Below, piece by piece: positions 2,041 through 52,839 of a stretch of 64,000 nt of DNA; positions within the stretch are counted from its first letter, which is position 1, and each line of letters starts with the position of its first letter. Under the pieces are notes generated by a model. The model saw only the letters and a list, made by a program, of their open reading frames with translations. It did not search any database and was not told the DNA's origin. The position numbers and the translations under genes are program-made. Source of the DNA: Pholidichthys leucotaenia (Eukaryota); contig CM035843.1 in the NCBI GenBank assembly GCA_020510985.1, forward strand, positions 157,187,922 through 157,251,921, read 5' to 3'.

Positions 2041-3100
2041 CAGTCAAATACTATATATAGTAAATACTCATATGACCAGTAGGCAATTTGTTTTAGCAAG
2101 GGGGATGGGGTAGTCACCAATTTAGCGTAAGGTACAAATGTATGAATGTAAATTATGTACAAATTTGCAAGAATAAAGGTGCAAAGCTGTGATAAAAGTT
2201 GCCAATTTAAAAATAAAGTTGTAAATTACAATTTAATTACACAAAATAAAAATTTAACAGCATCCAGATGAGTGTTGCCAATTTATGAGAAAGTTGCAAA
2301 AGTTTCAGGAAAAAAAGATGAAAATTTACAGGAAAAAAAAGTTGCACATTAATAAGAGAAAAGTTGATTTAAAAATTTGTAGAAGGAAGTTCAAAAGTCA
2401 CTTTTTTTGCAAATTTATGATAAGTTGCAAATCTTTGAGAAAAGTATAAAAATTTACAGGAAAAAAGTTGCAAATTAATGAGAAAACATGATTAAAAATT
2501 TACAGAAAAAAAAGTCAAAATTCACAAGTAAAGGTTTTGCAAATTTTGGAGAAAAATGTTACAAATTTATGAGGAAAAAAAATTAAAATTTATAGGAGAA
2601 AATAAATGCACAAGATTTTTTTTTGCAAATTTATTAGAAAAATGTTTCAAGTTTTTGAGGAAAAATGTTGCAAATTTTTGAGACAAGAGTACAGATTTAT
2701 GAGCGGAAAAAGCTGCAAATTTACAAGAAAAAAGTTGCAGATTTATGAAGAAAAAAATGAAAAATTATGGGAGAAAATGGATTTTTTTTTTTTTTACAAA
2801 TTTATGGAAAAATGTTGCAAATTTTTGAGAAAAAAGTTAAAGATTTATGAGGAAAAAAAGAACACAGGAAAACAGTTTCAGATTTATGCAGAAAAAGGTT
2901 GAACATTGACAATAATTTTTTTGCGAATTGTTAAGGAAAAATTAGCAAATTTATAAGGGGAAAAAAAGCTGCAGATTTAAGAGAAAAAAGTTGAAAGATT
3001 AGTTTTTTTAAATTTTTGTTTGTTTGCATTTCTGTTTAAAGTTGGGTTATTTTATCCAGTTACGTAACGTGATATAGAAAGGTTTATGATGTTGTGGGTA
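2041..3100 (+). repeat. Composite element built as a conserved head (about 2100-2290, ...TCACCAATTTAGCGTAAGGTACAAATGTAT...), a 23-bp VNTR (2290-3010, unit roughly GTTGCAAATTTATGAGGAAAAAA) and a conserved tail (3010-3100, ...TTACGTAACGTGATATAGAAAGGTTTATGATG).
   Basis: The same head recurs at 31390-31580, 59170-59290 and, reverse-complemented, 34440-34520. The same tail recurs at 35640-35710. The VNTR unit recurs at many sites, listed below. Confidence 0.7.
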
Positions 3101-3164
3101 CAATTCTCTGCAGTTGTGCCTCCCTCATCATTTAACCTCATTTCATTTTTTCCTCATTTCACAG

Positions 3165-6508: not shown

Positions 6509-6539
6509 GTCTGACACACGTCACCTGACACCTTTTTCT

Positions 6540-7200
6540 CATTAATATTTCACTGTTGCTTGAATATTTGTAATGTTTTCTCATATATTTACATTGTTTT
6601 CTTGTAAATTTGCCTTTTTTTCTTCTAAATTTTCAATTTTTCTTGTAAATTTTCTGCTTTTTTGATAAATTTGCCCCATTTTCCTCACAATTTTTTTCTC
6701 ATAAACTTGCCACTCATTTTGTTGTAAATTTGCCATTTTTTTTCTTAGAAATTTCAGATTTTTTTCTCATAAATATTTCACTTTTTTCTCATAAAATTGC
6801 AGTGTCTCCCTCTCTCTCTACATATATATTTATATACGTATATGCATTTTTTTCTTAAAAATTTGCAATTTTTTCCTGTAAATTTGCTACTTTTTTACTT
6901 GGAAATTTGCCAGTTTTTTTCTTACGAATTTCCTGCTTTTTTTTCTCATAAATTTGCATTTTTCTCTCATATACATGCAATTATTTGTTCTTGTAAATTT
7001 ACCATTTTTTTTCTTGTAAATTTGCTGCTTTTTTATTTGGAAGTTTGCAATGTTTTTCCTCATATTTGCATTTTTTTCTTATAAATTTGAATTCATTTTT
7101 CCTTCTAAATTTGCCTTTTTTATAAATCTGCTGGGGTTTTTTTTTGTAAATTTGCAACTTTTACATTGCCAATATGACTTTGTTTCTCATAAACTTATTT
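6540..7200 (-). repeat. 23-bp VNTR array in reverse orientation (TTCTCATAAATTTGCAA... units).
   Basis: Tandem units of about 21-24 bp, visible by eye and complementary to the 2290-3010 array. Followed by a (C)17 tract at 7216-7232. Confidence 0.8.
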
Positions 7201-7381
7201 TTTTTGTTGTAGAACCCCCCCCCCCCCCCCCAACATACACACACACATACACACAATCTAGGATTGCTTATTGACTTTAACAGGAAACGGTGCATGACCT
7301 AAGGTAGATTTCTGCCTTATAAAATGGCATTTACCTGGAAGGGCACATTGGTTTTGTGCCATCAGACAGCTGTACTTGTGT

Positions 7382-17555: not shown

Positions 17556-17679
17556 GGACTGAGGACCCCTGAGTGGAGAAACAAGGACGTAAGACGTCAG
17601 GGCACTTTTTGAAAACTCTAAAAACTTACCCAAACTTTGACTACACAAAGTTTAGGATTTTCTGTGTGATTTACCACCG

Positions 17680-17995
17680 GAGGGGTGGCTCAGTTGGTAG
17701 AGCATCCACCCCACACCCGGGAGGCAGGGGTTCAAGTCCCGGCTGGGTCATGCCGAAGACCATATAAAAATGGAACTTCCTGCCGTCCAGCTTGGTGCTC
17801 AGCAATAATGGAATGGAGGAGGGAAATTTTTGGCAGCGCCTTGCATGGCAGCGGCCCTCTGATTCTGCACTTGGGGTGTGTGTGATTAACACAGTAGATA
17901 GGTAAAGCACAATGTCTACTGTACATGATTGGTTGTACAGTTGAATGACAATAAGGGTGATTTAATTTAATTAATTTAATTTATGAGAAAACTTA
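17680..17995 (+). mobile_element. tRNA-derived SINE, about 300 bp, with an (ATTTA)n-like tail.
   Basis: tRNA-like head GGGGTGGCTCAGTTGGTAGAGCATCC...GGTTCAAGTCCCGGC followed by a conserved body. A second copy at 35040-35350 is about 93% identical. Confidence 0.75.
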
Positions 17996-18359: not shown

Positions 18360-19260
18360 AGAAAACAATTGCAGATTTACGGGAAAAAAGTTGAAAAAAG
18401 TCACAAATTTACGAGAAAACAGCTGAAATTTATGGGAGGAAAAAAATTCAAAAATTTATAGGAAAAAAGTTGAAAGTTTATGATTAAAAGTTTGAAAGTT
18501 TACATAAAAATTGCAACTTTTCTCAAATTTGCAAAATATTTTCAAGAAAACAATTTCTATAAGAAAAATGTTGCAGATTTATGGGAAAAACAAATTGCCA
18601 ATTTTTGATTAAAAAAATTAGAAAATTTATTTAAAAAAAAGTTGAAATGTTGCAAATTTATGAGGAAAGTCCCTAATTTATGAGGAAAAAGAGATGAAAA
18701 TATTCCAGAAAAAAGTCACAAATTTATGAGAAAATGGCTGAAAATTTATAGGGAAATTTAAAAAAAAAAATTACACTGAAAAAAGTTGCAAATTTATGAT
18801 AAAAAGATAGAAATTTATATAAAAATATGTAACTTTTGTCAAATTGACAATTGTTTTGAAATTTTTTTTACAGATTTATTAGAAAAATGTTGCAGATTTG
18901 AGTAAAAAAAAGTTGAAAATTTACAGGGGAAAAATGCCAATTTTTCATTAAAAAAATTGAAAACTTGTTTTTTTTTTAAAAATGAAGTTACTGGAAAAAA
19001 TTGCAAATTTTTGAGGAAAAAAGTTGCTAATTTGCTGATTTTTTTTTTTTTGAGAAGTTTTAAATTGATGAGAAAAAAGCTGAACATTTACAAGAAAAAG
19101 GTTCAGCATTTTTGAGAGAAAAGTCACAAATTTGAGGAAAAAGTTGCAAATTTGTGATTAAAAAGGTAGGAATTTAAATAAAAATTTCTAACTTTTGTCA
19201 AATTTGTAAAAAAAAAAATACAATGCAAATCTATAAGAAAAATGTTGCTAAGTTGTGAGG
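18360..19260 (+). repeat. 23-bp VNTR array (GTTGCAAATTTATGAG family).
   Basis: Tandem units. Interrupted at 19266 by a SINE insertion. Continues at 19600-19810. Confidence 0.8.
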
Positions 19261-19265
19261 AAAAA

Positions 19266-19600
19266 AATGAACATCCATCTTCTTCCGCTTAATCCTTTTC
19301 AGGTCGTGGGGGGGGCTGGAGCCTATCCCAGCATCTTTGGGTGAGAGGCAGGGTCCACCCTGGACAGATCGCCAGTCCATCGCAGGGCCAACACAGAGAG
19401 ACAAACAACCATTCACTCTCACAGTCATACCTAAGGACAATTTAGAATCCCCAGTTTGAGGCCAATTAACCTAACCTGCATGTTTGTTGGCATGTGGGAG
19501 GAAACCGGAGAAATCCCGGAGTAAACCCACGCAGACACGGGGAGAACATGCAAACTCCACACAGATCACTGTTGGTCGGGGGTGGGATCAAACCCAGAAT
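19266..19600 (-). mobile_element. tRNA-derived teleost SINE, 5'-truncated, with a 3' tail ...GGATTAAGCGGAAGAAGATGG(ATGG).
   Basis: Body CCTAACCTGCATGTTTGTTGGCATGTGGGAGGAAACCGGAGAAATCCCGGAGTAAACCCACGCAGACACGGGGAGAACATGCAAACTCCACACAG. The tail matches the 3' end of the Rex-like LINE at 7382-7440. Confidence 0.75.
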
Positions 19601-20203
19601 CTGAACATTTAGAGGAAAAAACTGCTAATTTTTGATTTAAAAAAAAAATGGAAAATTTATAGAAAAAAAGTTGGAAAAATGCAAATTTTTGAGAAGAAAG
19701 CTGCTAATTTACGAGGGGGAAACAAGCTGAAAATTTACAAGAAAAAAGTCAAGAAATTGCTGAAAATTTATGGGAAAAATTCAGAAATTTACAGGAAAAA
19801 GTTTCACATTCATGAGGACTTAATGAAGTCAGCAGGAGAGCAACGTAGGACCAGCTGTCAAAGTGTCAGTGTGATCTATTGTGGACTGTTTGTGTTGGCC
19901 ATGAGAGAGCTTCAGATAATAACCAGAACATCTGGTTGAGAGGAGGAGATTTGCTAGTGTACATGTCAGAAATGTCAGAATTCTGAGGTTTTACATTTTT
20001 TTAATTTCTTTTTTAGTGTTAAAAGGGTTCCGTGGCTCAAGAAATGTTGAAAATAGACAAAATCTCTTTAGTTGGTTAATTTCTCATTGTAGTTTGGCCC
20101 TCTGATGACTACAGGAACTCCAGCAGGTTTTGCTGTGGAGGATTTTGGTGGATAAGCCACCTTATTGTTCTAACCCAGTCGGCCTGTCCATGTCTTCCTC
20201 CAG

Positions 20204-20869: not shown

Positions 20870-20989
20870 GTGAGCATCGCAGCTGGACAACAGTCTGCTC
20901 TGAGGTCGACACCAGACCAATACAAGGATGTTCATGTCATATTCAAGTTTGAGCTAAAGAGGAACCGCAGCTCGGTTGAAAATGTACAT

Positions 20990-21300
20990 AAAATTTGTAA
21001 CGCCTCTCAAATTGGCAAAAACATTCAAGGAAACACTTGCAAATCTATAAGAAAATGTTTCAGATTTATGAGGAAAAAAGTTGAAAATTTACAGGGGAAA
21101 AAATGCAAATTTTTGATTTTAAAAAATTTGAAAATTTATAGAAAAAAGTTACAGGGAAAAAACTGCAAATTTTTGAGAAATGTTGCAGAATTCTGAGGAA
21201 AAAAGTTGCTAAATGATGAGGGGGAAAAAAGATGAAAATTTACAAGAAAAAAGTCAAAAATTTGAGAAAATGGAAATGAGAAACGTTATGGGGAAAATTT
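20990..21300 (+). repeat. 23-bp VNTR array.
   Basis: Tandem GTTGCAAATTTATGAG-like units. Confidence 0.75.
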
Positions 21301-21309
21301 CAGAAATTT

Positions 21310-21650
21310 AACTAACTAACTAACCTGCACTTATATAGCGCTTTTCTAGTCACAAAGACCACTCAAAGCACTTTCATTAATACTAACCGTCTATTCTAAG
21401 GGCCTATAGGAAACAGATATCTAGGGACAATTTAGAACAGCCAATTAACCTAACATGCATGTTTTTGGCATGTGGGAGGAAACCGGAGAAATCCCGGAGT
21501 AAACCCACGCAACACGGGAAGAACATGCAAACTCCACACAGATCACTGTTGGTCGGGGGCTGGGATCGAACCCACGATCCCCACAATCCCCCGGCCAAGG
21601 GTAAACTGTGCTGCTGCAGTGCTAACCACTGCGCCACCGTGCAGCCCAAA
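21310..21650 (-). mobile_element. tRNA-derived SINE (same head and body family as 19266) with a different 3' tail (...GCGCTATATAAGTGCAGGTTAGTTAGTTAGTTA).
   Basis: The reverse complement of 21570-21645 is a tRNA-like head, GGCTGCACGGTGGCGCAGTGGTTAGCACTGCAGCAGCACAG...GGGTTCGATCCCAGCC. Confidence 0.7.
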
Positions 21651-22250
21651 TTTACAGAAAAAAGTTGCAAATTTATGATAAAAATGTTGAGAATTTACAT
21701 AAAAAGTTGTAACTTTTCTCAAATTTGCAAAAACATTTTCAAGAGAACAAATGTAAATCTATAAGAAAAGTGATGCAGATTTATGACGGAAAAGGTTGAA
21801 AATATACAGGGAAAAATGATAATTTTTGATATTTTTTTTGAGAATTTATAGAAAAAAAGTTGAAGTTACAGGGAAAAATCAAATTTTTGATAAATTCAAA
21901 AATTTATAGAAAAGTTGAAGGAATAAAATTGCTCATTTTTAAGAAATGTTGTAGATTTATGAGGAATAAAGTTGCTAATTTATGAGGAAAAATATGTAGA
22001 TTTGCAAGAAAAGTCACAAATTTATGAGAAAATGGCTGACAATTAATGGTGAAAAATTAAAACATTTACAGGAAAAAAGTTACAAATTTATGAGAGGTCA
22101 CATTTTTTGAGAGAAAAGTTTCAAATTTGCAGGAATTTTTTTTTTCCAATTTGAGAGAAGTCACAAATTTTTAAGAAATTTGCACATCTAATGTTGCCGA
22201 TTTATGAGGAAAGAAGTTGTGACTCTACAAGAAAAAGTTGCTTTGAGAAA
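21650..22250 (+). repeat. 23-bp VNTR array.
   Basis: Tandem units. Confidence 0.75.
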
Positions 22251-22354
22251 TAAGTGTTGTTGCATCAAAATGAAGTTTTGTCAGTGTAATCATGCAGTCT
22301 TCTAACTCATCATGAACCGGAATTATAACTGTGTGCATGTTGATGTGAGTTCAG

Positions 22355-23039: not shown

Positions 23040-23400
23040 CTCTTACTCTTGTATGTTTCCTGTTGTTGTTCTCCCAGTTTGTTCATGTTTTTCCTCACCA
23101 GTTTTCCTGGTATCATTTCCTTGTACTTGCGCCCCCCCCCCCCAAAAAAAACAACCCTCAAGATTTTTGCTTTTTTTCATATTTTTACTGTGTTTTTGCT
23201 GTTTTTTCCCCCCATTTTTGTTGTCTTTCACCCATTTTTACTGTTTTTTTTTCTGTTTTGTGTTTATTCTGTTTTTACCATTTTTATCCCTTTTTCCATG
23301 ATGTTTACCCTGGTTTTTCCATTGTTTTAGTACTCTGTTTTATCTGTTTTGATTGTGCTTTTTTCAGTTTTTTTTCATGTTTTTTTTTCCTTTAACAGTC
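23040..23400 (+). repeat. T/C-rich degenerate minisatellite of about 11 bp (TGTTTTTACCC-like).
   Basis: Runs of TTTTTACCCTG, TTTTTACTGT and TTTTCCATTG units. Related arrays at 26580-26740 and 26940-27620. Confidence 0.6.
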
Positions 23401-26400: not shown

Positions 26401-26739
26401 AACTGAGTGACTAACTAGTGGGTCAAGACACTACTGGTTTAAAGGTAAGGAAAACAGAGCACATAATACTGAATCTAGGCCAAGTTGACAGTCAGTGTCA
26501 CATCTATCTGGCTGGTCCCTCTCATCCACCGGAACAAAGATGTTAGATTACAAGACCAATAATAATGCAAAAAGTTTGGTAAGGAGTTTTTTTTTTAATG
26601 TTTTTATTTTTTCTATTTTATCCTGTACTTACCCTGTTTTCTTTCCATATTTTTTACTGTTTTTTTCTGTTTTGCCCATTTTTATTCCCCCTGTTTTTAC
26701 TGTTTTTTTTTTTCCTGTTTTGATTGTGTTTATTCTGTT

Positions 26740-26940
26740 TTGACCATATTTAGCCCTTTATTATCATGAACCACCCAGAGCCCTCAGGTGGTCAGGGTCA
26801 GGCCTACTATCTGTGCCCAGAGTCAGAACCAGACATGGCGAGGCAGCGTTCAGTTTTGACGCTCCTCACATGTGGAACAAACTCCCAGAAAGCATCAGGG
26901 CTGCTGAAACTCTCAGCTGCTTTAAATCCAGGTTAAAAAC
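26740..26940 (+). mobile_element. L2-clade LINE 3'-terminal fragment.
   Basis: Encodes ...LRSS...VPRVRTRHGEAAFSFDAPHMWNKLPESIRAAETLSCFKSRLKT, the characteristic C-terminal tail of L2 ORF2. Confidence 0.6.
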
Positions 26941-27620
26941 GGTTTTCATTGTTTTTACCCAGTTATTTTTACTCTTTTTTTGCCTGTTTTCATCCAGTTC
27001 TTACCCTGTTTTTCCCATATTTTTGAATCTGTTTTGCTATTTTTCCCCATTTTAATTGTGTTTTTCCCTTTTTTTCCCAGTTTATTCACCCCTTTTTCAT
27101 GTTTTTACCCCATTTTCCCATTTAACATATTTTTACTCTTTTTCTCCCTATTTTTTCATATTTTTACCCTGTATTTCTTTTCTGGTATCTACCAGGTTTT
27201 TCCTGTTTTTCACCATGTTTTTGCTATTTTTTGTTGTTGTTCTATTTTTTGTTTTGGGCACGTCCAATGGGGAGGAGACCCCGGGGCAGATCTAGGACAC
27301 GCTGGAGAGACTGTGTCTCCAGTTGGTCTGGGAATGTCTTGGTATCTGGAAAAACGTTAGAAAATGGATGGGTCATTTTTTTTTCTGGTACTTGCTGTAT
27401 TTCTTTTCCTGTTTTTACTGTTTTTTTCCTGTTTTGAGCGTGTTTTTCAGGTTTTCTTTACCCTTTCTCCATGCTTTAACCCGTTTTTGTTTTGTTTTTT
27501 TACACGTTAACGGTGTTTTTACCCATTTTTTTTCTAACAGTTTTTCCTTGTTCTTCCCCTGCTTTTTCCCTGTTTTTTCTCCTACTTCCCCAGTATTTTT
27601 ACCTGTTACCCCTCCACCCC
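26940..27620 (+). repeat. T/C-rich minisatellite of about 11 bp. A small Rex-like LINE 3' fragment is embedded at 27240-27345.
   Basis: TGTTTTTACCC-like units. The embedded fragment encodes MGRRPRGRSRTRWRDCVSS. Confidence 0.6.
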
Positions 27621-28559: not shown

Positions 28560-28860
28560 GGGAAATTGAGGGCATCCACCTGGATGGATGAAGCAGCCAC
28601 GTTACGGTGCTATCCCTTTACCATTCACACCTAGGGCCACTTTAGAGTCTCCAATTAACCTAACCTGCATGTTTTTGGCCTGTGGGAGGAAACCGGAGAA
28701 CTCCCAGAGTAAACCCACGCAGACACGGGGAGAACATGCAAACTCCACACAGATCACTGTTGGTCAGGGGCTGGGATCAAACCAGGGATCCCATGGCCAA
28801 GGGTGAGTTGCTGTGCCGCCACAGTGCTAACCACTCCGCCACCGCACCGCCAGCATGTAG
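28560..28860 (-). mobile_element. tRNA-derived SINE (tRNA head and body family).
   Basis: CCTAACCTGCATGTTTTTGGCCTGTGGGAGGAAACCGGAGAACTCCCAGAGTAAACCCACGCAGACACGGGGAGAACATGCAAACTCCACACAG followed by the reverse complement of a tRNA-like head. Confidence 0.7.
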
Positions 28861-31351: not shown

Positions 31352-31559
31352 TATCATCATCAGGTGATTTATTTTTTTTAAACGGTGGATGGAAGGTATT
31401 CACCAATTTAGCATGAGGTACAAATGTATAAATGTAAATTAGGTATAAATTTGATAGAATAAAAGATACAAAGACATGGTAAAAGATACCAATTTGAAAA
31501 TTAAAGTCACAAATTACAATTTAATGACAGAGAAAATTTAACCAGCATCCAGATGAGTG

Positions 31560-31860
31560 TTGCAAATTTAACAGAAAAACTGCAACAAAATAGCAACTTT
31601 TTAAGAAAAAAAGTTACAAATTTATAAGAAAAGTGAGAATTTTTTAAAGAAAAAAGTTGCATATCTACAAGGAAAAAATACAAATTTATGAAAAAAGTTG
31701 AAAATTTACAGGGGCAAAAGTTGCATATTTATGAGGAAAAAAGTCACAATTATGAGAAAAAGGAATAAATTAAGAGTTACATTTTTGAGGGAAAAAGTAG
31801 CATATTTATGAGAAAGTCACAAATTTTTGAGGAAAAGTCAGTTTGTCCATTTTCATTTTT
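31560..31860 (+). repeat. 23-bp VNTR array preceded by the conserved head at 31390-31560.
   Basis: Head ATTCACCAATTTAGCATGAGGTACAAATGTATAAATGTAAATTAGG..., then tandem units. Confidence 0.75.
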
Positions 31861-31963
31861 TAAGAATATTTTCTCTGTTTTGTGTTAAAGCCAGAAATTT
31901 TTACATGTGTTGACTACTACAGGATACTGAATGGCATCAACCTAAACTAATAAATAAATATAT

Positions 31964-33603
31964 AGCGAGAGTGGTGTGAAAAAGTGTTTGCCCCTTCCTG
32001 ATTTCTCATTTTTTTGTATGTTTGTCACACTTAAATGTTTCAAATCATCAAACAAAATTAAATATGAGACAAAGATAACACAAGTAAACACAAAATGTAG
32101 TTTTTAAATTAGGCTGGTTATTATTAAGAGTAAAAAACGTCCCAACTTGCATGGCCCTGTGTGAAAAACTGACCCCCCCCCCCCCCACACACACACACAC
32201 ACTAAAACATAAATTAACTGTGGTTTATCACATCTTTGGAAAGCTGAGTTCAATTTCTCTAGCCACACCCAGGCCCGATTACTGCCATACCTGTTCTCAA
32301 TCAAGAAATCACTTAAATAGGACCTGCCTGAAAAAGTGAAGTAGACCAAAAGATCCTCAAAAGCTAGACATCATGCTGCTATCCAAAGAAATTCAGGAAC
32401 AAATGAGAAACAGAGTAATTGAGGTCTATCAGTCTGGAAAAGGTTATAAAGCCATTTCTAAAGCTTTGGGACTCCAGCAAGCCACAGTGCAAGCCATTAT
32501 CCACAATTGTGCAAAAACATGGAACAGTGGTGAACCTTCCCAGGAGTGGCCGGCCGACCAAAATTACCCCAAGAGTGCAGCGACAACTTATCCAAGAGGT
32601 CACAAAAGACCCCACAACAACATCCAAAGAACTGCAGGCCTCACTTGCCTCAGTTAAGGTCAGTGTTCATGACTCCACCATAAGAAAGAGACAAAAGGCA
32701 AAAATGGCCTGCATGGCAGAGTTCCAAGACGAAAACCACTGCTGAGCAAAAAGAACATAAAGGCTTGTCACAGTTTAGCCAGAAAACATCTAAGACTTTG
32801 GGGAAAATACTGTGTGGACTGACGAGACAAAAGTTGAACTTTTTGGAAGGTGTGTGTCCCATTGCATCAGTCGTAAAAGTAGCACAGCATTTCAGAAAAG
32901 GAACATCATACCAACAGTAAAATATGGTGGTGGTGGTGGTGGTAGTGTGATGGTCTAGGGCTGTTTTGCTGCTTCAGGACCTGGAAGACTTTCAGTGCTA
33001 AATGGAACCATGAATTCTTCTGTCTACCAAAAAATCCGGAAGGAGAATGTCTGGCCATCTGTTCGTGACCTCAAGTTGAAGTGCACTTGGGTTCTGCAGC
33101 AGGACAATGATCCAAAACACACCAGCAAGTCCACCTCTGAATGGCTTAAGAAAGACAATGTGAAGACTTTGGAGTGGGCTAATCAAAGTCCTGACCTGAA
33201 TCCCATTGAGATGCTGTGACATGACCTTAAAAAGGCGGCTCATGCTGGAAAACCCTCCATTGTGGCTGAATTACAACAATTCTGTAAAGATGAGTGGGCC
33301 AGAATTCCTCCACAGCTCTGTAAAAGACTCATTGCCAGTTATCGCAAACGCTTGATTGCAGTTGTTGCTGCTAAGGGTGACCCAGGTAGTTATTAGGTTT
33401 AGGGGGCAATCACTTTTTCACACAGGGCCAGTTTGGATTTTTTTACCCTTAATAATAAACGCCTTCATTTAAAAACTGCATTTTGTGTTTACTTATGTTA
33501 TCTTTGTCTAATATTTAAATTTGTTTGATGATCTGAAACATTTAAGTGTGACAAACATACAAAAAATGAGAAATCAGGAAGGGGGCAAACACTTTTTCAC
33601 ACC

Positions 33604-33609
<6 letters not shown>
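31964..33609 (+). mobile_element. Tc1-like DNA transposon with a frameshifted transposase (ORFs 32373-32745 and 32995-33370).
   Basis: TIR core AGAGTGGTGTGAAAAAGTGTTTGCCCC at 31967-31995 and the reverse complement at 33580-33609. (CA)n and (GT)n microsatellites at 32186-32205 and 33603-33640. Confidence 0.8.
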
Positions 33610-33643
<34 letters not shown>

Positions 33644-33789
33644 GTTACTGTAGGCTTGATAGTGGTTTCATTAATTGTGTAACCCATATACAGTATATAT
33701 TTGGTATATCATGTTACAGGACTGAATAAAATGACTTGGAAGCATCAATTCAAAGCAAAAAATAAAAAATTAACATTTGCAACTTTTTA

Positions 33790-34520
33790 TTGTAAAGCTG
33801 CATTTCCCCCTGCAAATTTCCAAATTTTTTCCCCATAAATTTTCAACTTTTTTCTTGTAGATTTGCAGCTTTTTTTCTCATAAATGTGGAACTTTTTTCC
33901 CATAGATTTTCAATATTTTTCTTAAAAATTTGCATTTTTTTCCTGTAAATTTGTTTTTCTTGTAGATCTATTGCCATTTTTCTGTAAATTTCCCACTTTT
34001 TTGTCTTTCCCAAAAATTTCCAATTTTATTTTAGTTTTTCCTGTACATTTTTTTTTACCTTTTTCCTCAAAAATTTGCAGCTTTCCTATAAATTTGCAAC
34101 ATTTTTCTCATTAATCTGTCATTTTTTTCCTGGAAATTTTCAGCTTTTTTCCCTCAAAAATTTGCTACTTTTTTCTCATAAATTTTCAACTTTAAAAAAA
34201 TCTCTTTTTCCTGTAAATGTACAACTTTTTTTCAAAGATTTGCAACTTTTTTCTCAAATGTGCATTTTTCTCTGTAAATTTGCACAATTTTTCTCATAAA
34301 TTTTCAGTTTTTTCCTTTAACTTTTCAACTTTTTTTCTCATGAATTTGCAGCTAAGTTCATCTGAATGCTGGTTCAATTTTTTGTTTTATGTAATTGTAA
34401 TTTATAAATGTTGGAATTTTTAAATTTGCATCTTATATTTTTGCATCTTTATTCTTGCAAATTTGTACCTAATTTACACTTATCCATTTGTACCTCATGC
34501 TAAATTTGTGAGTACGCCCA
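33790..34520 (-). repeat. 23-bp VNTR array in reverse orientation. The reverse-complemented conserved head lies at 34440-34520.
   Basis: Units such as TTTTCTCATAAATTTGCAAC, then the head reverse complement (...CATTTGTACCTCATGCTAAATTTGTGAGT). Confidence 0.75.
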
Positions 34521-34594
34521 TCCTCCTATTAAAAAGTAATAAATCGCATAAACGGTTTTGTTTTGTTTTGTTCCCCGTGTGTGTGACAATATAG

Positions 34595-35039: not shown

Positions 35040-35350
35040 ATAACCGGAGTGGTGGCTCAGTTGGTAGAGCATCCGCCCCACATCCGGGAGGCAGGGGTTC
35101 AAATCCCGGCCGGGTCATGCCAAAGACCATATAAAAGTGGAATTTCCTGCCGTCCAGCTTGGTGCTCAGCAATAATGGAATGGAGGAGGGAAATTTGTGG
35201 CGGCGCCTTGCATGGCAGCGGCCCTCTGATTCTACACTTGGGGTGTGTGTGATTGACACGGTGGATAGGTAAAACACAATCTCGTTCTACTGTACATGAT
35301 TGGTTGTACAGTTGAATGACAATAAGGGTGATTTAATTTAATTTAATTTT
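35040..35350 (+). mobile_element. tRNA-derived SINE, second copy of the 17680 family.
   Basis: Head GTGGTGGCTCAGTTGGTAGAGCATCCGCCCCACATCCGGGAGGCAGGGGTTCAAATCCCGGCC and an (ATTTA)n tail. Confidence 0.75.
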
Positions 35351-35449
35351 AATTTAATTTTAATAAGCCAACAGTGGTCATAAGCTAAACAACTCACCAT
35401 AACAGCTGCGTAGTTCTCCACTGGTTTTCCTCATACCACAGATTAAAGT

Positions 35450-35710
35450 CACAAATTTTCAAGATAAGCATCGAAAACTTATGAGAAAAGTCACAAATGT
35501 TTGAGAAAAAAGTTAGAAATTTATGAAAAGTATCAAATTTATGAAAAGTCTCAATGAGAAATAATAGTCAAATTTATGCTAAAAAGTCAGAAATGTGTGA
35601 GAAAAGTCAAATTTTCAAGAAAAAAGTTGATCACTCATAAGATTTTTGTATTTCTGCTTATAACTGGTCATTAAAAGTTATTCAATTATGTAACATGATA
35701 TAGAAAGGTT
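35450..35710 (+). repeat. 23-bp VNTR array with the conserved tail (TTATGTAACATGATATAGAAAGGTTTGTGAAG) at about 35680-35715.
   Basis: Tandem units. The tail matches 3060-3100. Confidence 0.7.
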
Positions 35711-36189
35711 TGTGAAGATATTGGGGGGGGGGGTGACCATTTTTTCTTTTTTCCATGTTGGAGGGCAGTGACCCCCCCCCCCCCCATTCTCCCCTTAATT
35801 TACACCTACTAGTGTATACCCATGTATGTCAGTAGAAACCAAGTATAAGCAAGTATTTTTCATGCCCGTAGAAAGTTACTGTTACTATGGCAACAGTAAC
35901 TATGGTGAAACCTGCCTTTGATCTTGGACGTCACCATTCGTTCAGTGATGCCTGCCTTTGATCTTTGATGATGTCATAGCGAGTCCTATGAGCATCACAC
36001 ACACACACACACACTCACACAGATTTCTTGAATTATATTTAGAGTGATGAGTGGGGAATGGGGGGATAGCACCCCCCCAAAAAAAAATCACCTACTGATT
36101 ATAATTCATTTCTCAGTAAAGTTTTTGATCCATTTCCATTTTAAAAAAGACCTGTCAGTGCTATATGTAACTGGTGTTTTTGTTTTTAG

Positions 36190-36260: not shown

Positions 36261-39200
36261 GTGAGTTCTGAAGGTAATACGCTTTATTTGCGTAGAAATA
36301 GGCTTTAAGAATTAAAACTCTGCCTCTACTACTAATGACAATAACAGTGTCATTATGCACATAAAAAAACAGTATGTGGTCCTCGTGAAAACTGATTGGG
36401 GAATCCTGCTGAAGGGTCATAAATCCGCAGTTCTACTTGAAACCCAGCAGGTGGCAGCAGGTGTCCATATAAAAGGCTTCCGACCAGTAGACGTTGGCAG
36501 CTTTCAGCCATGCCACTTTCTCACAGGTTTTCCTTAAGAAGTGGGTAAAGTCGTGGGGCGGACAAGCACGGGGACCTCTATAGCCATGGTTCTGCTCCTC
36601 CTCTTTTTGGCATTTTTACTCTTCATGTTACTACAGTGCGAGATGACACAATCAAACACACTTTAAATATGGAGACATAGAAATGCTGCCAAGTTTCTGA
36701 GAAAAGTCACATTTATGTCATCAAAAAATTAATTCACCAAAATAAAAATAAAAAATCTTAGAAAAAAGTTGCAAATTTCAGAGAAAGGTTACAAACTTAA
36801 AAAAAACCCACTCATTTTGTTTAAAAAAGTCACAAATTTGAGGAAAAAAGGTGCAAGCTTGCAAAAGCTTAACAAGTTTAATGAAAAAAATCAAAAATTT
36901 ACTTGAAAAAGGGACTTCTGGTTATGGCGGCCACGTGAGAAGGACGCGTATCACTCTGCTCTGCTCCTAGAGAAAAAAAAATTGGCAAATGACTCTCTCA
37001 TTTGGGACAGAGCCTATCCCAGCGTTTGGGCGAGGATATGTCGGTGAAGCCTAAGGCTGGAAAATCAGGTAGAGGAAAAAGCGAACCGCCGAAACAGTCC
37101 AAATTAACGGACTTTCACGTCTGTGACACAGCAGATAAAGCTCCATATATGGCGGAGGAAGCTAGCAGCGGTGCGGTGACTGCGGGAAACGGCACAGGTG
37201 CAGTGCTTGCTGCTATTAGTTCAATGAGAGCAGACTTTTCCGCTAAATTTGATGGGATTATGGCAGCGTTGGAAGGAATGAGAAAAGAATTGGGTGACTG
37301 TGTAGAGCGAATGGTGCAGGTGGAGCTTCGTGTCTCCAGTGCTGAAGATGACGTCACCAGCCTTCAATTAAAGGTGCGCACTTTGGAAAAAAAAAAAAAA
37401 AAAATGTCTGGAAGATAATGTCTTGGAGTCCCGGTCGAGACAGAACAACTTGAGGCTGGTGGGTTTACCGGAGGGAACCGAGGGTCGGGACCCATGTTCC
37501 TTTTTGGAAAAGTGGATTCCGGAGGTGCTGGGCAGCGCGGAGCTGCAATCAACAGTTGTCCTAGAAAGTGCACACCGAATTGGCCCACCGAGAGATAAGG
37601 GACCACCGAGGATGCTTATTATGAAGTTCCTCAGCAACAGAGACAGGATGAAGATCTCCAACGCTGCGCGAGCGAAAGGAGGGATTAAACACCAGGACCA
37701 GCAGGTGCGGTTCTACCCAGATTTGGCCACAGGAATCCAACAATTGAGGAAGCAGTTTGACCCCGTACGAAAAGAGCTGCGCAACCTTGGGATTCGTCAT
37801 GGTGTAATTTATCCTGCGAGACTGTTGACCACGTATGGGGGCAGAACACACATCTTCAAGACCCCAGAGGAGGCGCAGGAGTTCATCAAGAAGATCCAAG
37901 AAGAGACTGGTGGGAGCTAAGCATGAACAAAATATAAGGTAGAATATTTAAGCATTTGCACAGGCATCTGACTGATTTGAAGCAAATAGCAAGTTTACAA
38001 AATATAGATTGTATTATATATTAAAAAAAAACAAAAAAAAACTATGATGTACAAAGTTGCTAAAAATTTTGGAGTTAAGTTGGAAAACTACAGAAGAGAG
38101 TTAATGTTACGTCATTAAAAGCAGTAGAGTTAGGGTGATTGGGAGGATGAAGAAAGAGTGGTTTTGGCTGAGCCTCGTGGGTGTGGAGCGGTCGATGGCT
38201 ATATCAGGAGACGGAATTTTTCTTTTGATTTTGGGGGGTTTGCCACAAATGTGGGAAGGGGGAATTTGTTTGTGTGTAGTTTGTAGGATGAATGTTCAAC
38301 CACTCATGTTTTTGCTTCTCTGTATGAGCATGTTTACACTGCAAGGTAATCCCAAACTCCCTATTGATCATAAACCAAAGCGTTAATCTTAATTTAACTT
38401 CATGGAATTGCAGAGGTCTACAAAATTTAAAAAACTTAAACAAGTTATGAATAAAATAAAAGACATAGGTTCAAAAATTGTGTTTTTACAAGAAACTCAT
38501 CTAATAGAGGAGGATGTAAAAAGAATTAGGAGTAGATGGCAAGGAAGTGTTTTCACCTCATCATTTTCATCCCGAGCCAGGGGAGTTATGATTCTCATAC
38601 ATAAATCAGTCCCATTTCAAGTGAAAAATGTAATTGGAGACAAATTTGGAAGATATTTAATCATTCAAGGATCTTTGCTATTAGAAAATATAAATCTGGT
38701 GAACTTATATGGTCCCAATATAGATGATCAAAAGTTCTTTGCTAATTTATTTCTTATCTTATCATCACTTACAGGGCAACATATAATAGCAGGGGATTTT
38801 AATTGTACATTGAATCCCGGTATAGATAGATCAACAGGACTGGACTGTACGCACAATGGATGTAGGATGATCATTAATCATTTTATGAAAGAATTGAGAT
38901 TGCTAGATATATGGAGAGAAATGAAACCACAAGTTAAAGCCTACTCTTGTTATTCTAATACCTACAAGACATTCTCACGTATTGATTATTTTTTGATCTC
39001 CACAGAATTAAGGTCCAAGATTCAAAACTGCTTTTATGATAACATTGTGATCTCTGATCATGCACCCTGCTGTCTAATACTGTATATGTAGATAAGAAAT
39101 TGACAAAGGAACCAGGCAGGTGGCAATTTCAGCATAAATGGCTTCAGGATGAGGAATTTGTTAAGTACATAGAAAAACAGATAGATGAGTTCTTTGATAT

Positions 39201-41356: not shown

Positions 41357-44300
41357 CTAATTGTAGGCTATATCAAAAAGGTAGGTTTTAGCCCTATTCT
41401 TAAAAACAGAGATCAAGTCTGACTCCCGAATCCAGATTGGCAGCTGATTCCACAGGAGAGGAGCTTGATAACTAAAGGCTCTGCCTCCCATTGTACTTTT
41501 GGAGATTCTAGGTATTACAAGTAAACCTGCATTTTGGGAGCGTAGTGCTCTGTTAGGATGATACGGTAGTATCAGATCTTTTAAATAAAAAGGAGCCTGA
41601 TTGTTTAGAGCTTTGTAAGTAAGAAGAAGGATTTTAAACTTAATTCTAAACTCTATGGGAAGCCAATGAAGGGAGGCCAGAACCGGAGAGATATGATCTC
41701 TCTTTCTAGTACCTGTTAAAACTCTTGCTGCAGCATTTTGGATCAGCTGAAGACTTTTTAAAGATGTTTTAGGACAGCCTGATAATAAAGAATTACAATA
41801 ATCTAATCTCGAGCTAACAAAAGCGTGGATCAGCTTCTCAGCATCACTCTGAGACAAGATGCTCCTAATCTTGGCAATATTACGCAAATGATAGAAGGCA
41901 GTCTTAGAAACAAATTTAATATGTGAATTGAAGGACAAATCCTGATCAAAAATAACTCCAAGGTTCCTCACAGAGCTATTAAGAGAAAGAGTAACTGCAT
42001 CCAAACTGAAAGTTTGATTTGGAAAGGAATTTCTAAGGTTTTTTGGACCAACAAGAATGACTTCAGTCTTATCTGAATTTAATAGCAGGAAATTACAAGT
42101 CATCCAAACTTTGATTTCCTTAAGACAGGCTTCTAACTTGGCTAATTGATTAGTATCATCTGGCTTCATTGACAGGTATAATTGTGTGTCATCTGCATAA
42201 CAGTGAAAATGTATACAGTGCTTTCTAATAATGTTGCCTAACGGAAGCATATATAAACTAAAAAGAGTAGGGCCAAGCACAGATCCCTGTGGAACTCCAT
42301 GACTAAGCTTTGAGCTGAGAGAAAACTCATCATTTACATGAACAAACTGGAACCTATCAGATAAATAAGATCTAAACCACTGCAACGAAGTTCCATTAAG
42401 TCCAACATAGTGTTCTAATCTATCAAGTAGAATATTATGATCAATAGTATCAAAAGCTGCACTAAGATCTAAAAGGACAAGTACAGAAACTAGTCCATTA
42501 TCAGATGCAATGAGGAGGTCGTTAGTGACCTTCGCTAAGGCTGTTTCAGTGCTATGATGGATTCTAAACCCAGATTGAAACTCCTCAAATAAACCATTTC
42601 CCTGCAGGTGGTCAAATAATTGCGTAGCAACAACTCTTTCTAAGATTTTTGAAATGAAAGGGAGATTAGAGATTGGTCTATAGTTAGCTAAATCTCCTGG
42701 ATCTAGCGTTGGCTTTTTGAGTAAGGGTTTAATTACAGCCGTTTTAAAAGCCTGCGGTACATGGCCTAAAGTTAATGAAGAATTGATTATATGAAGAATA
42801 AAGCTACCAATAAGTGGGAAGACTTCTTTAAATAACCTGGTAGGAATAGGGTCTAAAAGACAAGTTGAAGGTTTGGATGAGGAAACTATTTTGTCTAACT
42901 CACAAAGGTCGATTGGAGTAAACTCATCAAGACAGACATCAATAGAAGGAGTTGTAGTAGTTACAGTATTTAAGTTAACTGTGGGAAGAATCTGATTGAT
43001 TTTATCTCTGATGGATGAAATTTTATTATTGAAAAAGTTCATAAAGTCCTGACTAGTAAGCTCTAAGGGGATGCTAGGATTGACAGAGTCCTGACTCTTT
43101 GTCAACCTGGCTACAGTACTGAAAAGAAACCTGGGATTATTCTTGTTCTCTTCTATTAATGCAGAGTAATAACTCGTTCTAGCTTTTCTAAGAGATTTTT
43201 TATAAATTAAAAGATGATTTCTCCAAGCTAAATAGATTTCATCTAAATTAGTAGAGCGCCATTTTCTTTCTAATTGACGAGTCTTCTGTTTTAAGCTACG
43301 AGTTTCTGTGTTGAACCAAGGAGTTAAAAATCTCTGATTAGCCTTTTTCTTTTTTAAGGGGGCCACCAAGTCTAGAGCCTGATGCAGAGAAGCTGAAACA
43401 CTATCCACCATGTTATCAATTACAGAAGGAGCAAGCTGACTATAGCTTATTTCCGTTGTGTTGACACATGGCATAGAGGAAACAATCTGCATAAATTTGG
43501 AAACAGCATCATCTGAGAGGCATCTACTGTGATAATATTTTTCTTTAGGAGCCAAATAGTCAGAAATAGTAAAATCAAAGGTTAACAGACAATGGTCTGA
43601 CAGTACAGGGTTATGAGGAGACACTACAAGATTTTCTATTTCTATGCCATATGTCAGAACAAGGTCCAATGTATGGTGGAGGTAATGAGTAGAATTTCCT
43701 ACTTTCTGAGAAAACCCAATCGAGTCTAATATTGAATTAAAAGCCACATTAAGGCAGTCACTATCTACATCCACATGTATATTAAAGTCCCCTACTATAA
43801 TTATTCTATCAGATTTCAGCACTAAATCAGCTAAGAAATCAGGAAATTCGGATAAAAATTCTGAATAGGTTGATGGGGGACGATAAACTATGGCAAATAA
43901 AATTGGGTTTAACCTGGAATTGCTAAAGTGCCCAACACTGAGGACCAGGCCCTCAAAGGAATTATAACATGTTTTTTGCTTTACATTAACTAGTAATTTG
44001 GAATGGTAAATTGTTGCTACTCCTCCTCCACGACCAGAACTTCTGGGATTTTGACAGTTTAAATAACCAGAGGGAGTTGATTCATTTAAACCAACATAAT
44101 CCTCTTGTCCTAACCAAGTCTCTGTAAGGGAAATTAAATCAATCTGATGATCAATTAACAGATCATGGACTAACAGAGACTTGGGAGTTAGAGACCTAAT
44201 ATTTAATAAACCACATTTAATTTTTAAATTATGAGGAGGAACAGAGGCCAAATCATTCAATTTAGAGGCTTTATGTTTAATTTGAGTTTTACCAATATTT

Positions 44301-44362
44301 TGCTTTATCACTTTGGGATGCTTATACATTATATTTTTATTTACTTTGGAGGGAGCAGACAA
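41357..44362 (-). CDS. L2 ORF2 (apurinic-endonuclease-like plus reverse transcriptase), 1001 aa, uninterrupted.
   Basis: Single long ORF. Shows APE motifs (LNIRSL...SLTETWL), the RT motif FDTIDHNIL, and YADDTQLY. Confidence 0.85.
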
Positions 44363-44473
44363 CGATTCTCTGATGGGGAAGACAGGGGCTAAGCTGAGGG
44401 GTGGCGGATGAAGAGGAGCTGCAGAGAGGCGTGTAAGACTGAGACTCTGCTTCCTGGTCCCAACTCTGAGTAG

Positions 44474-45352
44474 TTATGGTTTTGGAAATTTGGATAAAAA
44501 AGATGCCAGATTGTTAGATAAATGAGAAGCACCATTCAAAGTGGGATGAATGCTGTCTCGTCTCATAAGACCAGGTTTTCCCCAAAAAGAGCTCCAATTG
44601 TCAATGTAGCCCACGTCATTTTTAGGACACCACACAGACAGCCAGCGGTTCAAGGATGACGAGCGACTAAACATGTCATCACTGGTCAGATTGGGGAGGG
44701 GTCCAGAGAATACTACAGTGGCAGACATCGTTTTGGCAAAGTCACACACCGATTCTATATTAAGTTTCGTGACTTCCGACTGCCGGAGACGGATGTCATT
44801 AATGCCGGCGTGAATAACAATTGTGGAATATTTACAGTTACTTTTAGCCAGCATTTTCAAATTTGACTCGATGTCGCCTGCTCTGGCCCCAGGAATGCAT
44901 GTGACTATGGCCGATGGAGTCTCTAGGTTCACGTTTCTGACTACAGAGTCGCCAATGATCAGAGTTTTTTCCTCAGCGGGTGTGTCGCTGAGCGGGGAAA
45001 AACGATTAGAAACGTGAACAGGTTGGTGGTGAACCGGGGCTTTGCGACTAGGCTTCCTTCTCACCGTCACCCACCCAGTCTCCTCGCTGCTGAGGAGAGC
45101 CGGGGAACCACTGACAGGGGGGCCTAAGCTAGCTAGCTCCGCTGCAGCTAATGGGCGTCCGTCGAGATTAACTGGCGCAGACGGTGTTTCAATGCAGCGG
45201 AGCCGGGATTCCAAATCAGACAACCTCGCCTCGAGCGCCTCAAAAAGACAACATTTATTACATTTACCGTTATCACTAAAAGAGGCAGAGGTGTAGCTAA
45301 ACATCTGACAGAGAGAGCACACCAGAGGAGAGGAAAGAGAGGTAGTAGCCAT
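44474..45352 (-). CDS. L2 ORF1 with a C-x2-C zinc knuckle, a coiled coil and an SGNH-hydrolase (esterase) domain, 292 aa.
   Basis: Motifs [13 protein letters not shown] ... HAGINDIR ... DSIHPT. Esterase-type ORF1 is known from CR1 and L2 LINEs. Confidence 0.75.
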
Positions 45353-47278
45353 AGCTAGTGGCTAGAGAGCTGGAGAGCAAACCACACAGGCAGACAGCAA
45401 AACAGGAAGTGACGATACGTTACCACAAGGAAGTGACGATCACAATTCCTACCACAATTCCAAGTTAGTGGAATTTATATGGAACAACAGGAGGGCTAGA
45501 TTACGTCTGTCCTTATTATATTTACCATTTGATCGTGGAGGTCTGAAATGTCCAAACTTTATGTTGTATTATTGGTCGGCGCAACTGAGGTCTATGACAT
45601 ATTATTTTTCATCAAATGATCTCCCTCACTGGACGGAGATGGAATCATACAATTTACCTTTACCTCTTCCCATATTCATATACTCAGATTCGGCAAAAAA
45701 ATTACAAAAACAAGTTAAAAATCCATTTGTAAAGCATATGATCAAAATATGGTGTGAAACTAAAAACTATTTAAAAGAACCACACTTATTGTCACAATTT
45801 AGCCCAATATGGGGTAATCAATATTTTAAACCAGGGAGAGCGGATGCTGTATTTAAAGTATGGAATTTAAAAGGGATTCAAAAGAGTCAAGATTTATATC
45901 TGTCACGTTCAGATAACATAATGTCTTTTGAAGAGCTGAGGATCAAATTTAATCTTAATAGAACACATTTTTTTTAAATATCTTCAACTTCGGAACTTTA
46001 TTCGATCAAATCAAAATAAAGCTCTCACTCGACCTATTTATTCATCCTTGGAAAAAATGTTGATGAAAGATAGTAAAAGAAAGGGTATTATTTCAGAGTT
46101 TTATAACTCATTGACACTATCCTCAAGTGAAAACTCACAGAAAAGATTAAACTACTGGAAAGAAGATCTGCAAACTGAAATTTCAGAGGAACAATGGGAA
46201 TTGGCTTGTACAGAAGCTCAAACCAAATCAATAAATGTACGTCTTAAATTGATACATTTTAAATGGTTAATGCGGATGTATGTTACACCAGTGGAGTTAA
46301 ATAGATATAACAAAAACATACCAGATACATGCACAAAATGCATGGAAAGTAAAGGAACCCTATTTCATTGTGTATGGGAATGTAGAATAATTAGAGTGTT
46401 TTGGGAAGAGGTGAGGGTAACAATTGAAAAAATAATTTCAAAACAAATCATATTGAATCCTAAACTGTTTTTGTTGGGTCTGTACCCAGAAAAGCATAAC
46501 TTTAATAAAAGTGAAAGAACATTCATAGACCTCAGTTTGCTTAATGCCAAAAAATGTATTGCACTACTGTGGAAAAAGACTCATAGACCAGATGTGACTC
46601 AGTGGTTAAGACAGATGTTAATAAACCTTCCACTAGAAAGAATAACATACATACTGAAATCAAAGGAAACTGTGTTTGAGAATATATGGAGACCTTTTAT
46701 TGATTATGTAAAGAATTTAAACATAACTTTTGAAGAAGAAGGTGAATGATGTGTGTGGACCTTGTAAATTCCAAACTGGTGAATATAATATGTATACTTA
46801 TGTAATGGATTGCCTAGACTAAACAGAGGAGCATTGTTGAAGACTTGATTTTGTTGGTGGTTGTTGGTGTTTTTAGTGTATTTTTTTTTTTGTAGTACTT
46901 TAGTGTTAGTGTTTGTTTGTGTCATGTTTGTTAAAAAAAAAGGTTCAATAAAGATATTGTGGAAAAAAAAATTTACTTGAAAAAGTCACATACTACTGAA
47001 AAAAATTACAAGCTTCACCCCCCCCCCCCCCGCCCCGATCCCAAAGTAATATTGGATATTAAACTTGGTGGGCACTCATGCCATGAACGACTTTTGCAAG
47101 GACTGATATTGGATGGAGTCTCTCATTGGCCTAGCATCTCTGCTACTTTGCTGCTGCTAGCTTCTGTGTGGACTCCAGCATGTAAGTTCACCTGCTGCCA
47201 TCTTTGCGTGGACCCTGGCCTGTGACTTCATCACCTCTTCTTTAGTGAGCTTTACTTCATTGTGGCCCTGAGTGTCTA

Positions 47279-48950: not shown

Positions 48951-49189
48951 CCGCCAAGGAGGTTATGTTTTTACCGGGGTTTGTTTGTCTGTTTGTTTGT
49001 TTGTTTGTCTGTTACCAACATAACTCAAAAAGTTATGAATGCATTTTGACGAAATTTTCAGGACAAGTCCGAAATGGGACAAGGAAGAAATGATTAGATT
49101 TTGGGAGTGATCCGGATCACCATCTGGATCCAGGAATCTTTTTAAAGGATTCTTTATCATTGCGAGATAGGGCCATTTTTAGTATATAT

Positions 49190-50770
49190 GTACAGTGGGG
49201 CAAAAAAGTATTTAGTCGGCCACCAATTGTGCAAGTTCTCCCACTTAAAAGATGAGAGAGATCTCCAATTTTCATCATAGGTATACCTCAACTATGAGAG
49301 ACAAAATGAGAAAAAAAAAATCCAGAAAATCACATTGAAGGATTTTTAATGAATTAATTGGTAAATTCCTCAGTAAAATAAGTATTTGGTCACCTACAAA
49401 CAAGCAAGATTTCTGGCTCTCACAGACCTGTAACTACTTCTTTAAGAGGCTCCTCTGTCCTCCACTCGTTGCCTGTATTAATGGCACCTGTTTGAACTCG
49501 TTATCAGTATAAAAGACACCTGTCCACAACCTCAAACAGTCAGACTCTAAACTCCACTATGGCCAAGACCAAAGAGCTGTCAAAGGACACCAGAAACAAA
49601 ATTGTAGACCTGCACCAGGCTGGGAAGACTGAATCTGCAATAGGTAAGCAGCTTGGTGTGAAGAAATCAACTGTGGGAGCAATTATTAGAAAATGGAAGA
49701 CATACAAGACCATTGATAATGTCCCTCCATCTGGGGCTCCACGCAAGATCTCACCCCGTGGGGTCAAAATTATCACGGGAACGGTGAACAAAAATCCCAG
49801 AACCACATGGGGGGACCTAGTGAATGACCTGCAGAGAGCTGGGACCAAAGTAACAAAGGCTACATCAGAAACACACTACACCGCCAGGGACTCAAATCGT
49901 GCAGTGCCAGACGTGTCCCCCTGCTTAAGCCAGTACATGTCCAGGCGTGTCTGAAGTTTGCTAGAGAGCATTTGGATGATCCAGAAGAGGATTGGGAGAA
50001 TGTCATATGGTCAGATGAAACCATAATAGAACTTTGTGTTAAAAACTCAACTTGTCATGTTTGGAGGAGAAAGAGCACCATACCTACTATGAAGCATGGG
50101 GGTGGAAACATCATACTTTGGGACTGTTTTTCTGCAAAGGGACCAGGACGACTGATCCGTGTAAAGGAAAGAATGAATGGGGCCATGTATCGTGAGATTT
50201 TGAGTGAAAACCTCCTTCCACCAGCAAGGGCATTGAAGATGAAACGTGGCTGGGTCTTTCAGCATGACAATGATCCCAAACATACCACCCGGGCAACGAA
50301 GGAGTGGCTTCGTAAGAAGCATTTGAAGGTCCTGGAGTGGCCTAGCCAGTCTCCAGATCTCAACCCCATAGAAAATCTTTGGAGGGAGTTGAAAGTCTGT
50401 GTTGCCCAGCGACAGCCCCAAAACATCACTGCTCTAGAGGAGATCTGCATGGAGGAATGGGCCAAAATACCAGCAACAGTGTGTGAAAACATACAGAAAA
50501 CATTTGACCTCTGTCATTGCCAACAAAGGGTATATAACAAAGTATTGAGATGAAGTTTTTTTATTGACCAAATACTTATTTTACCGAGGAATTTACCAAT
50601 TAATTCATTAAAAATCCTTCAATGTGATTTTCTGGATTTTTTTTTTCCTATTTTGTCTCTCATAGTTGAGGTATACCTATGATGAAAATTGGAGACCTCT
50701 CTCATCTTTTAAGTGGGAGAACTTGCACAATTGGTGGCTGACTAAATACTTTTTTACCCCACTGTATATA
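49190..50770 (+). mobile_element. Tc1-like DNA transposon, copy A. Transposase ORFs 49559-49954 and 49972-50553 (one frameshift). TIRs of about 210 bp.
   Basis: TIR TACAGTGGGGCAAAAAAGTATTTAGTCGGCCACCAATTGTGCAAGTTCTCCCACTTAAAAGATGAGAG... at 49190-49400 and the reverse complement at 50560-50770. TA flanks both ends. Confidence 0.9.
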
Positions 50771-52755: not shown

Positions 52756-52839
52756 ATAAAATAAATGTAGGACTATTATATTTGGGGAAAATCCCAATAT
52801 TGGGGGGAACTGAGGTATTTGGCAGAGGTCTGCGCTCTC

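Follow-up and report, generated by a model that had tools for sequence, protein, structure and literature searches.

A dispersed repeat of head, minisatellite array and tail in the PARP4 introns of Pholidichthys leucotaenia

The 64,000-nucleotide stretch of Pholidichthys leucotaenia DNA analysed here (the window) contains 11 intronic loci of a degenerate, A-rich 22-23-bp minisatellite, which together amount to ~6.4 kb, or ~10% of the window. We consider it probable (roughly 0.6) that these loci belong to a lineage-specific, long-inactive family of non-coding, and hence non-autonomous, interspersed repeats in which a head, a length-variable array and a tail moved as a unit. We regard this family as ordinary in kind among non-autonomous repeats and leave its class unassigned. 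An earlier note, written from the letters of the window alone, had described a composite of head, VNTR-like array and tail in both orientations, and this organisation was recovered by BLAST, nhmmer and TRF; TRF also found arrays of 20-23-bp period at every site that the note had listed. As in the note, no named family could be matched.

The window is spanned by the PARP4 (vault PARP) gene of a bony fish (percomorph teleost), which lies on the + strand and whose introns are full of transposable elements. Stop-free stretches of the + strand encode PARP catalytic, VIT and VWA segments, and a 483-aa concatenate of such stretches retrieved PARP4 proteins, the best of which came from percomorph fishes and shared ~66-70% identity. 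Using those proteins as tblastn queries, we located ~18 exons between 3163 and 60086, all on the + strand. The distance from the PARP catalytic exons to the VWA exons is ~37 kb in the window compared to ~12 kb in Dissostichus, because the introns of the window are filled with transposable elements; in Liparis, the introns of PARP4 measure from ~90 bp to a few hundred bp. Apart from the exons and the repeat described here, the window consists of transposable-element debris, namely Tc1-like elements with ~210-bp inverted ends, several LINE families, a tRNA-derived SINE and other SINEs. The tRNA-derived SINE is present in two copies (17676-17983 and 35043-35356) that are 92.7% identical, with an Rfam tRNA match at 35046-35117, and an inverted pair of Tc1-like elements within 49187-52758 shows 94.7% identity over 1.6 kb and has ~210-bp terminal repeats.

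Head, array and tail occur together in only two copies. The first, c1 (+), comprises a head at 2075-2272 (nhmmer head profile, E = 1e-54, and BLAST against the other heads), an array of ~30 degenerate 22-23-bp units with 43-45-bp dimer sub-repeats at 2273-3021 (TRF rows at 2290-2858, and the sequence itself) and a tail at 3022-3111 (leave-one-out nhmmer, E = 2.3e-6, and BLAST to 35645-35715), which ends 53 bp upstream of the PARP4 exon placed at 3164 on the exon map. The second, c3, lies on the − strand at 33702-34554, with its head at 34554-34358, its array at 34357-33776 and its tail at 33775-33702; ~40 bp separate its head edge from a PARP4 exon at 34595. Two copies on the + strand are made of head and array: c2 (31357-31850, head 31357-31557), which has no recognisable tail and whose head begins 3 bp past the end of a Tc1 element at 31354, and c4 (59138-59615, head 59138-59305), which starts ~23 bp past the end of a PARP4 exon at 59115. 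The fifth, c5 (35440-35726, +), has a short array and a tail (35642-35726) without a head, and is found downstream of the tRNA-derived SINE at 35043-35356. Copies c2 (+) and c3 (−) face each other within 31357-34554 in a foldback-like arrangement; the interval that separates them holds nothing but a (CA)16 run, ~200 bp of further sequence and a Tc1 element (31968-33608) with TIRs of 214 bp.

The six other loci carry arrays only. The one at 6530-7200 (−) starts ~20 bp past an exon end at 6511; those at 18360-19815 and 20975-22260 (both +) are interrupted by SINEs at 19266-19600 and 21310-21647, respectively, and the latter occupies most of one PARP4 intron. Two short remnants on the + strand, at 36700-36910 and at ~60395-60500, adjoin the 5' end of a LINE and the 5' end of a young LINE copy, respectively, and an array fragment of ~135 bp (58203-58337, +) is flanked by direct repeats of 89-91 bp. 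These direct repeats (58114-58202 and 58338-58428) are 88% identical and each opens with a LINE-tail-like (GATG)n stretch; judging from its sequence, the segment 58114-58428 resembles either a local duplication or an insertion whose target duplication is unusually long. No shared flanks were found among the array-only loci, and a density map of the core motif marked the same loci and no major additional ones. Several copies of the repeat lie only 20-100 bp from PARP4 splice sites, since the corresponding introns are short in other fishes. A 38-bp segment present on the same strand at 1925-1962 and 7275-7312 (84% identical), ~125 bp upstream of the c1 head and ~75 bp past the array at 6530-7200, may be a fragment of some other repeat.

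When the c1 head (2090-2280) was compared to the window by BLAST, it matched 31384-31563 (+; 82%, E = 1.5e-44), 34527-34358 (−; 79%, E = 6e-37) and 59176-59272 (+; 90%, E = 4e-33), and an nhmmer search of the window with a head profile returned exactly four heads, those of c1 to c4 (2075-2272, 31357-31557, 34554-34358 and 59138-59305), along with weak matches to the arrays. The head measures ~200 bp. Its first ~70-100 bp are unique (GTTTRTGCGATTTATT...GGATGG..TCACMAATTTAGCRTRAGG), and from AGGTACAAATG onward the remaining ~100-130 bp are made of ~5 degenerate array monomers followed by CAGCATCCAGATGAGT; judged by its sequence, this second part of the head is a run of fossilised ('frozen') array monomers. 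The conserved head of ~180 bp put forward in the earlier note therefore exists in four copies, but its last ~100-130 bp belong to these fossilised monomers.

All arrays have in common the A-rich, 22-23-bp monomer consensus AAAAGTTGCAAATTTATRAGAAA. TRF assigned them periods of 20-23 bp and higher-order periods of 41-45, 62-64, 91 and 104 bp, and their length differs between loci, the variable array of the unit extending over 290-750 bp. Some higher-order duplications are private to one or two copies, with lengths of 43-45 bp for c1 and c3, of 62-64 and 104 bp for c4 and of 91 bp for the locus at 6530, while a higher-order repeat of ~315-340 bp is common to 18360-19815 and 20975-22260, with 77-84% identity in a self-BLAST. 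Mean monomer identity within arrays does not exceed that between arrays, indicating that no recent homogenisation took place. The window also harbours a second, unrelated A-rich degenerate minisatellite at 23171-23390 and 26589-27607 (−), with units like GGGTAAAAACAGGAAAAA and periods of 11-32, located in another PARP4 intron and interrupted by a repeat fragment. The A-rich repeats at 26600-27600 were considered as members of the family and rejected as a different repeat, since they lack the GCAAATTT core.

The tail spans ~70-90 bp (...TTTCTGYTTA...GTTACGTAACRTGATATAGAAAGGTTTRTGA). Three tails are backed by leave-one-out profiles, in which each tail was recovered by a profile made from the other two: 3022-3111 (E = 2e-6), 35642-35726 (E = 6e-7) and 33753-33702 (E = 4e-3). 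A fourth candidate behind c2, at 31836-31937, was discarded because its support was circular: it is 42-43% identical to the others and was missed by every profile that excluded it. The tail that the earlier note had seen in at least two copies is thus present in three, but the full composite in only two.

In the window, an array directly follows four of four heads in the same relative orientation (E = 1e-33 to 1e-55) and directly precedes three of three tails. The copies stand in both orientations and in different introns, and the homology between them begins at about GTTTRTGCGATTTATT and stops at about GTAACRTGATATAGAAAGGTTTRTGA, the exact termini being uncertain by ~6 bp; the flanks beyond are unrelated. 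Such sharp, reproducible edges set in unrelated flanks argue for a discrete mobile unit rather than a segmental duplication.

The c1 tail contains a 10-bp palindrome, GTTACGTAAC (3053-3062), ~20-50 bp from the inferred end of the copy. Its counterparts are ATTATGTAAC in c5 and GTCCTGTAAC in c3, and as the differences include CG-to-TG changes, the comparison of the three sequences suggests CpG decay of an ancestral tail palindrome in c5 and c3. The c1 palindrome conforms to RTTAYGTAAY, the PAR-bZIP/D-box consensus; as it is intact in c1 alone, this fit is probably incidental.

Head, tail and array were all missing from ~180 kb drawn from seven other percomorph genomes, a sample made up of the PARP4 loci of Lates, Dissostichus, Nematolebias and Liparis and of LINE-bearing loci of Pampus, Parambassis and Channa. 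The earlier note had also called the family abundant, a term that we apply to the window only. The exon breaks of PARP4 in Liparis, Dissostichus and Nematolebias coincide with those of the window. Since the element is absent from the four PARP4 loci sampled and the exon breaks match, the copies represent lineage-specific insertions into ancestral introns, and the same exon breaks led us to reject an introner reading, in which the element makes introns. The head core, the tail and the array were also sought by exact-pattern scans; collections of metagenomes and bacterial genomes yielded no more than two 21-mers, both chance matches to bacterial DNA, and viral collections yielded none. Stop-free translations of the arrays from both strands, used as a 437-aa query, matched no ORF elsewhere, and strings of the monomer, the head and the Tc1 TIR were not found in literature string searches.

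Head identity is 75-79% among c1, c2 and c3 (K2P 0.26-0.30), and the head copies are roughly equally diverged from one another. On this divergence, on the later insertions and on a monomer identity that is no higher within arrays than between them, the family is judged to be old, in agreement with the earlier note, which had also seen younger elements in the arrays; SINE, LINE and Tc1 elements do lie in or beside them. The SINE copies at 19275-19596 and 21417-21639 match SINEs at 28631-28844 and 53784-53889 (84-96%). A LINE with endonuclease and RT ORFs begins at ~36912, where it abuts an array remnant, and a young LINE copy begins at 60506, immediately past the array at ~60400; its 99%-identical twin at 45441 has no adjoining array. 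This CR1/L2-type pair (41947-45441, −, and 60506-64000, +) is 99% identical over 3.5 kb, which at the level of sequence implies very recent activity. The element codes for an ORF1 with a GDSL-esterase domain and an intact 1001-aa ORF2, for which an exact look-up gave no record and whose best relative in a protein search was 69% identical (73% over half its length).

The earlier note had likened the repeat to SVA-type retroelements, MITEs and Helitrons, and searches for the marks of these classes lent none of the three any backing. Local alignments of heads to reverse-complemented tails scored no better than shuffled sequences, so that neither the TIRs of a MITE nor subterminal inverted repeats were detected, although in copies 21-25% diverged short decayed inverted repeats could escape this test. 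Direct repeats at the inferred edges, which are uncertain by ~6 bp, were limited to chance-level 5-6-mers (CAGTAG/CAGTTG, CATCA and AAACC), so there was no convincing TSD, and no poly(A) or microsatellite follows the tail. The tails have no consistent similarity to the 3' ends of the LINEs in the window, and no SINE-like module was seen. Canonical Helitrons have a 5' TC, a 3' CTRR, a hairpin of 16-20 nt ~11 bp from the 3' end and insert between A and T. The ends inferred here read G(T)TT.../...TG or, in the opposite orientation, CA.../...AAAC, unlike the TC...CTRR of a canonical Helitron; terminal folding energies did not differ from those of shuffled sequences, the c1 palindrome included, with no significant 3' hairpin, and a left-flank hairpin was predicted in c2 only and is not conserved. 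No Rep/helicase or other candidate autonomous partner was found among the ORFs of the window. An Rfam scan of heads and tails at E≤1 revealed no tRNA, 5S, 7SL or hammerhead match, and we consequently rejected a SINE with a Pol III head, for want of tRNA, 5S or 7SL similarity, and a Penelope-like element or retrozyme, for want of any ribozyme match. The A-rich strand is the sense strand at 9 of the 11 loci (two-sided binomial test, P ~ 0.07); a plausible, if hypothetical, reason for such a bias is that cryptic acceptors of the polypyrimidine-plus-CAG kind would arise from the T-rich strand.

The same observations bear on other explanations of the 11 loci. Satellite-like 'seeds' might have spread without a transposase, in which case head and tail would be no more than the co-copied flanks of an ancestral array; possible routes are the reintegration of extrachromosomal circles, the use of filler DNA when double-strand breaks are repaired or an ectopic duplication on a local scale within the PARP4 region. 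With 11 loci clustered in 64 kb, of which they fill ~10%, the very high local density could reflect local, non-transpositional spread of this sort, and such a process would also fit the six loci with neither head nor tail, the 135-bp array fragment between direct repeats of ~90 bp that resemble no standard TSD, the failure to find transposition hallmarks and the absence of the family from all other fish loci sampled. We nevertheless hold it to be unlikely, since head and tail have sharp edges whose positions agree between independent copies, the flanks of the copies are unrelated, both orientations and different introns are involved, and the about equal divergence of the heads is more in keeping with a burst from one master copy than with local copying step by step.

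The missing poly(A) or microsatellite at the tail ends, the failure to find TSDs, tails without consistent similarity to LINE 3' ends in the window and a head with no likeness to tRNA, 5S or 7SL even at E≤1 all weigh against an SVA-like composite retroposon that was transcribed and then reinserted by a LINE reverse transcriptase, leaving c5 and the array-only loci as 5'-truncated copies. The composite architecture with its internal VNTR would suit such a retroposon, as would c5, with its array and tail but no head, the presence of several LINE families in the window, one of them 99% identical between copies, and the position of 9 of the 11 loci on the strand of the host transcript; c2 and c4, however, keep the head and lose the tail, which is the opposite of 5' truncation, and we find this origin quite improbable. 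Highly improbable, in our view, is a Foldback-type DNA transposon, of which c2 (+) and c3 (−) would be a single element split by Tc1 and the other copies half-elements, each long inverted arm being a unique terminal 'head' followed by tandem repeats. That c2 and c3 face each other with only Tc1, a (CA)n run and ~200 bp between them agrees with it, and a unique terminal segment with an inward array corresponds to the arms of Foldback/Tetris-type elements (PMC4079207). Nonetheless, c2 and c3 are no more similar to each other (76%) than they are to c1 (79% and 75%), no target duplication is seen at the two outer head edges of the pair, c1, c4 and c5 have no inverted partner, and a conserved tail is unexpected in a pure foldback arm.

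Under the preferred reading of a non-autonomous family moved as a unit, the whole unit would have entered PARP4 introns that were originally short, and presumably other places in the genome as well. Slippage and unequal exchange would then have altered the length of the internal array, and the copies would have decayed and later been hit by SINE, LINE and Tc1 insertions. The array-only loci could be truncated or eroded copies, or members of a sister subfamily with the ~320-bp higher-order repeat. Satellite arrays dispersed by transposable elements are known from oysters and insects. At long odds, the family might be a vertebrate counterpart of these, that is, a previously unclassified mobile element of percomorph fish, devoid of TIRs, TSDs, poly(A) and terminal hairpins and possibly mobilised by fish Helentrons, which plants minisatellites that can expand, with a preference for the short introns of transcribed genes and with the A-rich strand mostly sense.

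For annotation, the loci should be masked as one repeat family and not as separate VNTRs or regulatory sequences. Making up about one tenth of the gene region, they help to explain why the PARP4 introns are several-fold larger than in other percomorphs. Should the family turn out to be abundant across the genome and to be linked to a Helentron or some other partner, it would represent a vertebrate case of minisatellites dispersed by transposons, a process for which the documented cases have so far, to our knowledge, come mainly from bivalves and insects; failing that, it is decayed repetitive DNA of an ordinary kind.

Several known systems resemble the repeat in part. Tandem-repeat MITEs are short, non-coding, dispersed elements with an expandable internal array, and it is their TIRs and TSDs that define them as MITEs. 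The fish repeat is likewise short, non-coding and dispersed, with an expandable array, but TIRs and TSDs were looked for in it and not found. The SVA elements of hominids are non-autonomous composites with an internal VNTR between conserved modules, a description that also applies to the fish repeat, which differs in its host lineage and in having no poly(A), TSD, hexamer repeat, Alu-like or SINE-R module and no link to a LINE tail. Among Foldback-type transposons, the FB of Drosophila and Tetris (PMC4079207) have arms made of tandem repeats. As in the fish repeat, these tandem repeats come after a unique terminal segment, and the window holds one inverted pair (c2 and c3); most fish copies, however, are single, the fish repeat has a distinct tail, and neither TSDs nor additional similarity between arms was found.

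HINE/DINE-1-like elements are recognised by a central block of tandem repeats or microsatellite that keeps one orientation between conserved flanks, by subterminal inverted repeats of 11-15 bp near both ends, with a complementary inverted repeat in the left flank, by a short palindrome 8-35 bp from the 3' end, by TT insertion without TSD and by a partner Helentron that shares their termini. HINEs with central tandem repeats have been described as Cg_HINE in Crassostrea gigas (PMC7492417) and in mites, Culex and Drosophila (PMC4067079), with a layout of left flank, central tandem repeats and right flank with a palindrome (PMC4067079, PMC7492417). Helentrons have been reported in many fish families. 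The fish repeat departs from HINEs in having monomers of 22-23 bp as opposed to ~140-180 bp, no left-flank microsatellite, no detectable subterminal inverted repeats of 11-15 bp or left-flank inverted-repeat hairpin, and no Rep/helicase-endonuclease gene in the window; because the defining subterminal inverted repeats were not found, we do not place the family among the HINEs. In architecture, both are non-coding and consist of an array of variable copy number set between two conserved flanks, of which the right one is short, with the array always running the same way between them (four of four heads and three of three tails in the fish repeat). Copies of both, truncated derivatives among them, are scattered in either orientation and frequently within introns of genes, and the two may also share a right-flank palindrome (GTTACGTAAC in c1, degraded at CpG sites in c5 and c3). 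A rolling-circle, Helentron-associated element of the HINE/DINE-1-like type would thus appear to be the best architectural analogue of the family.
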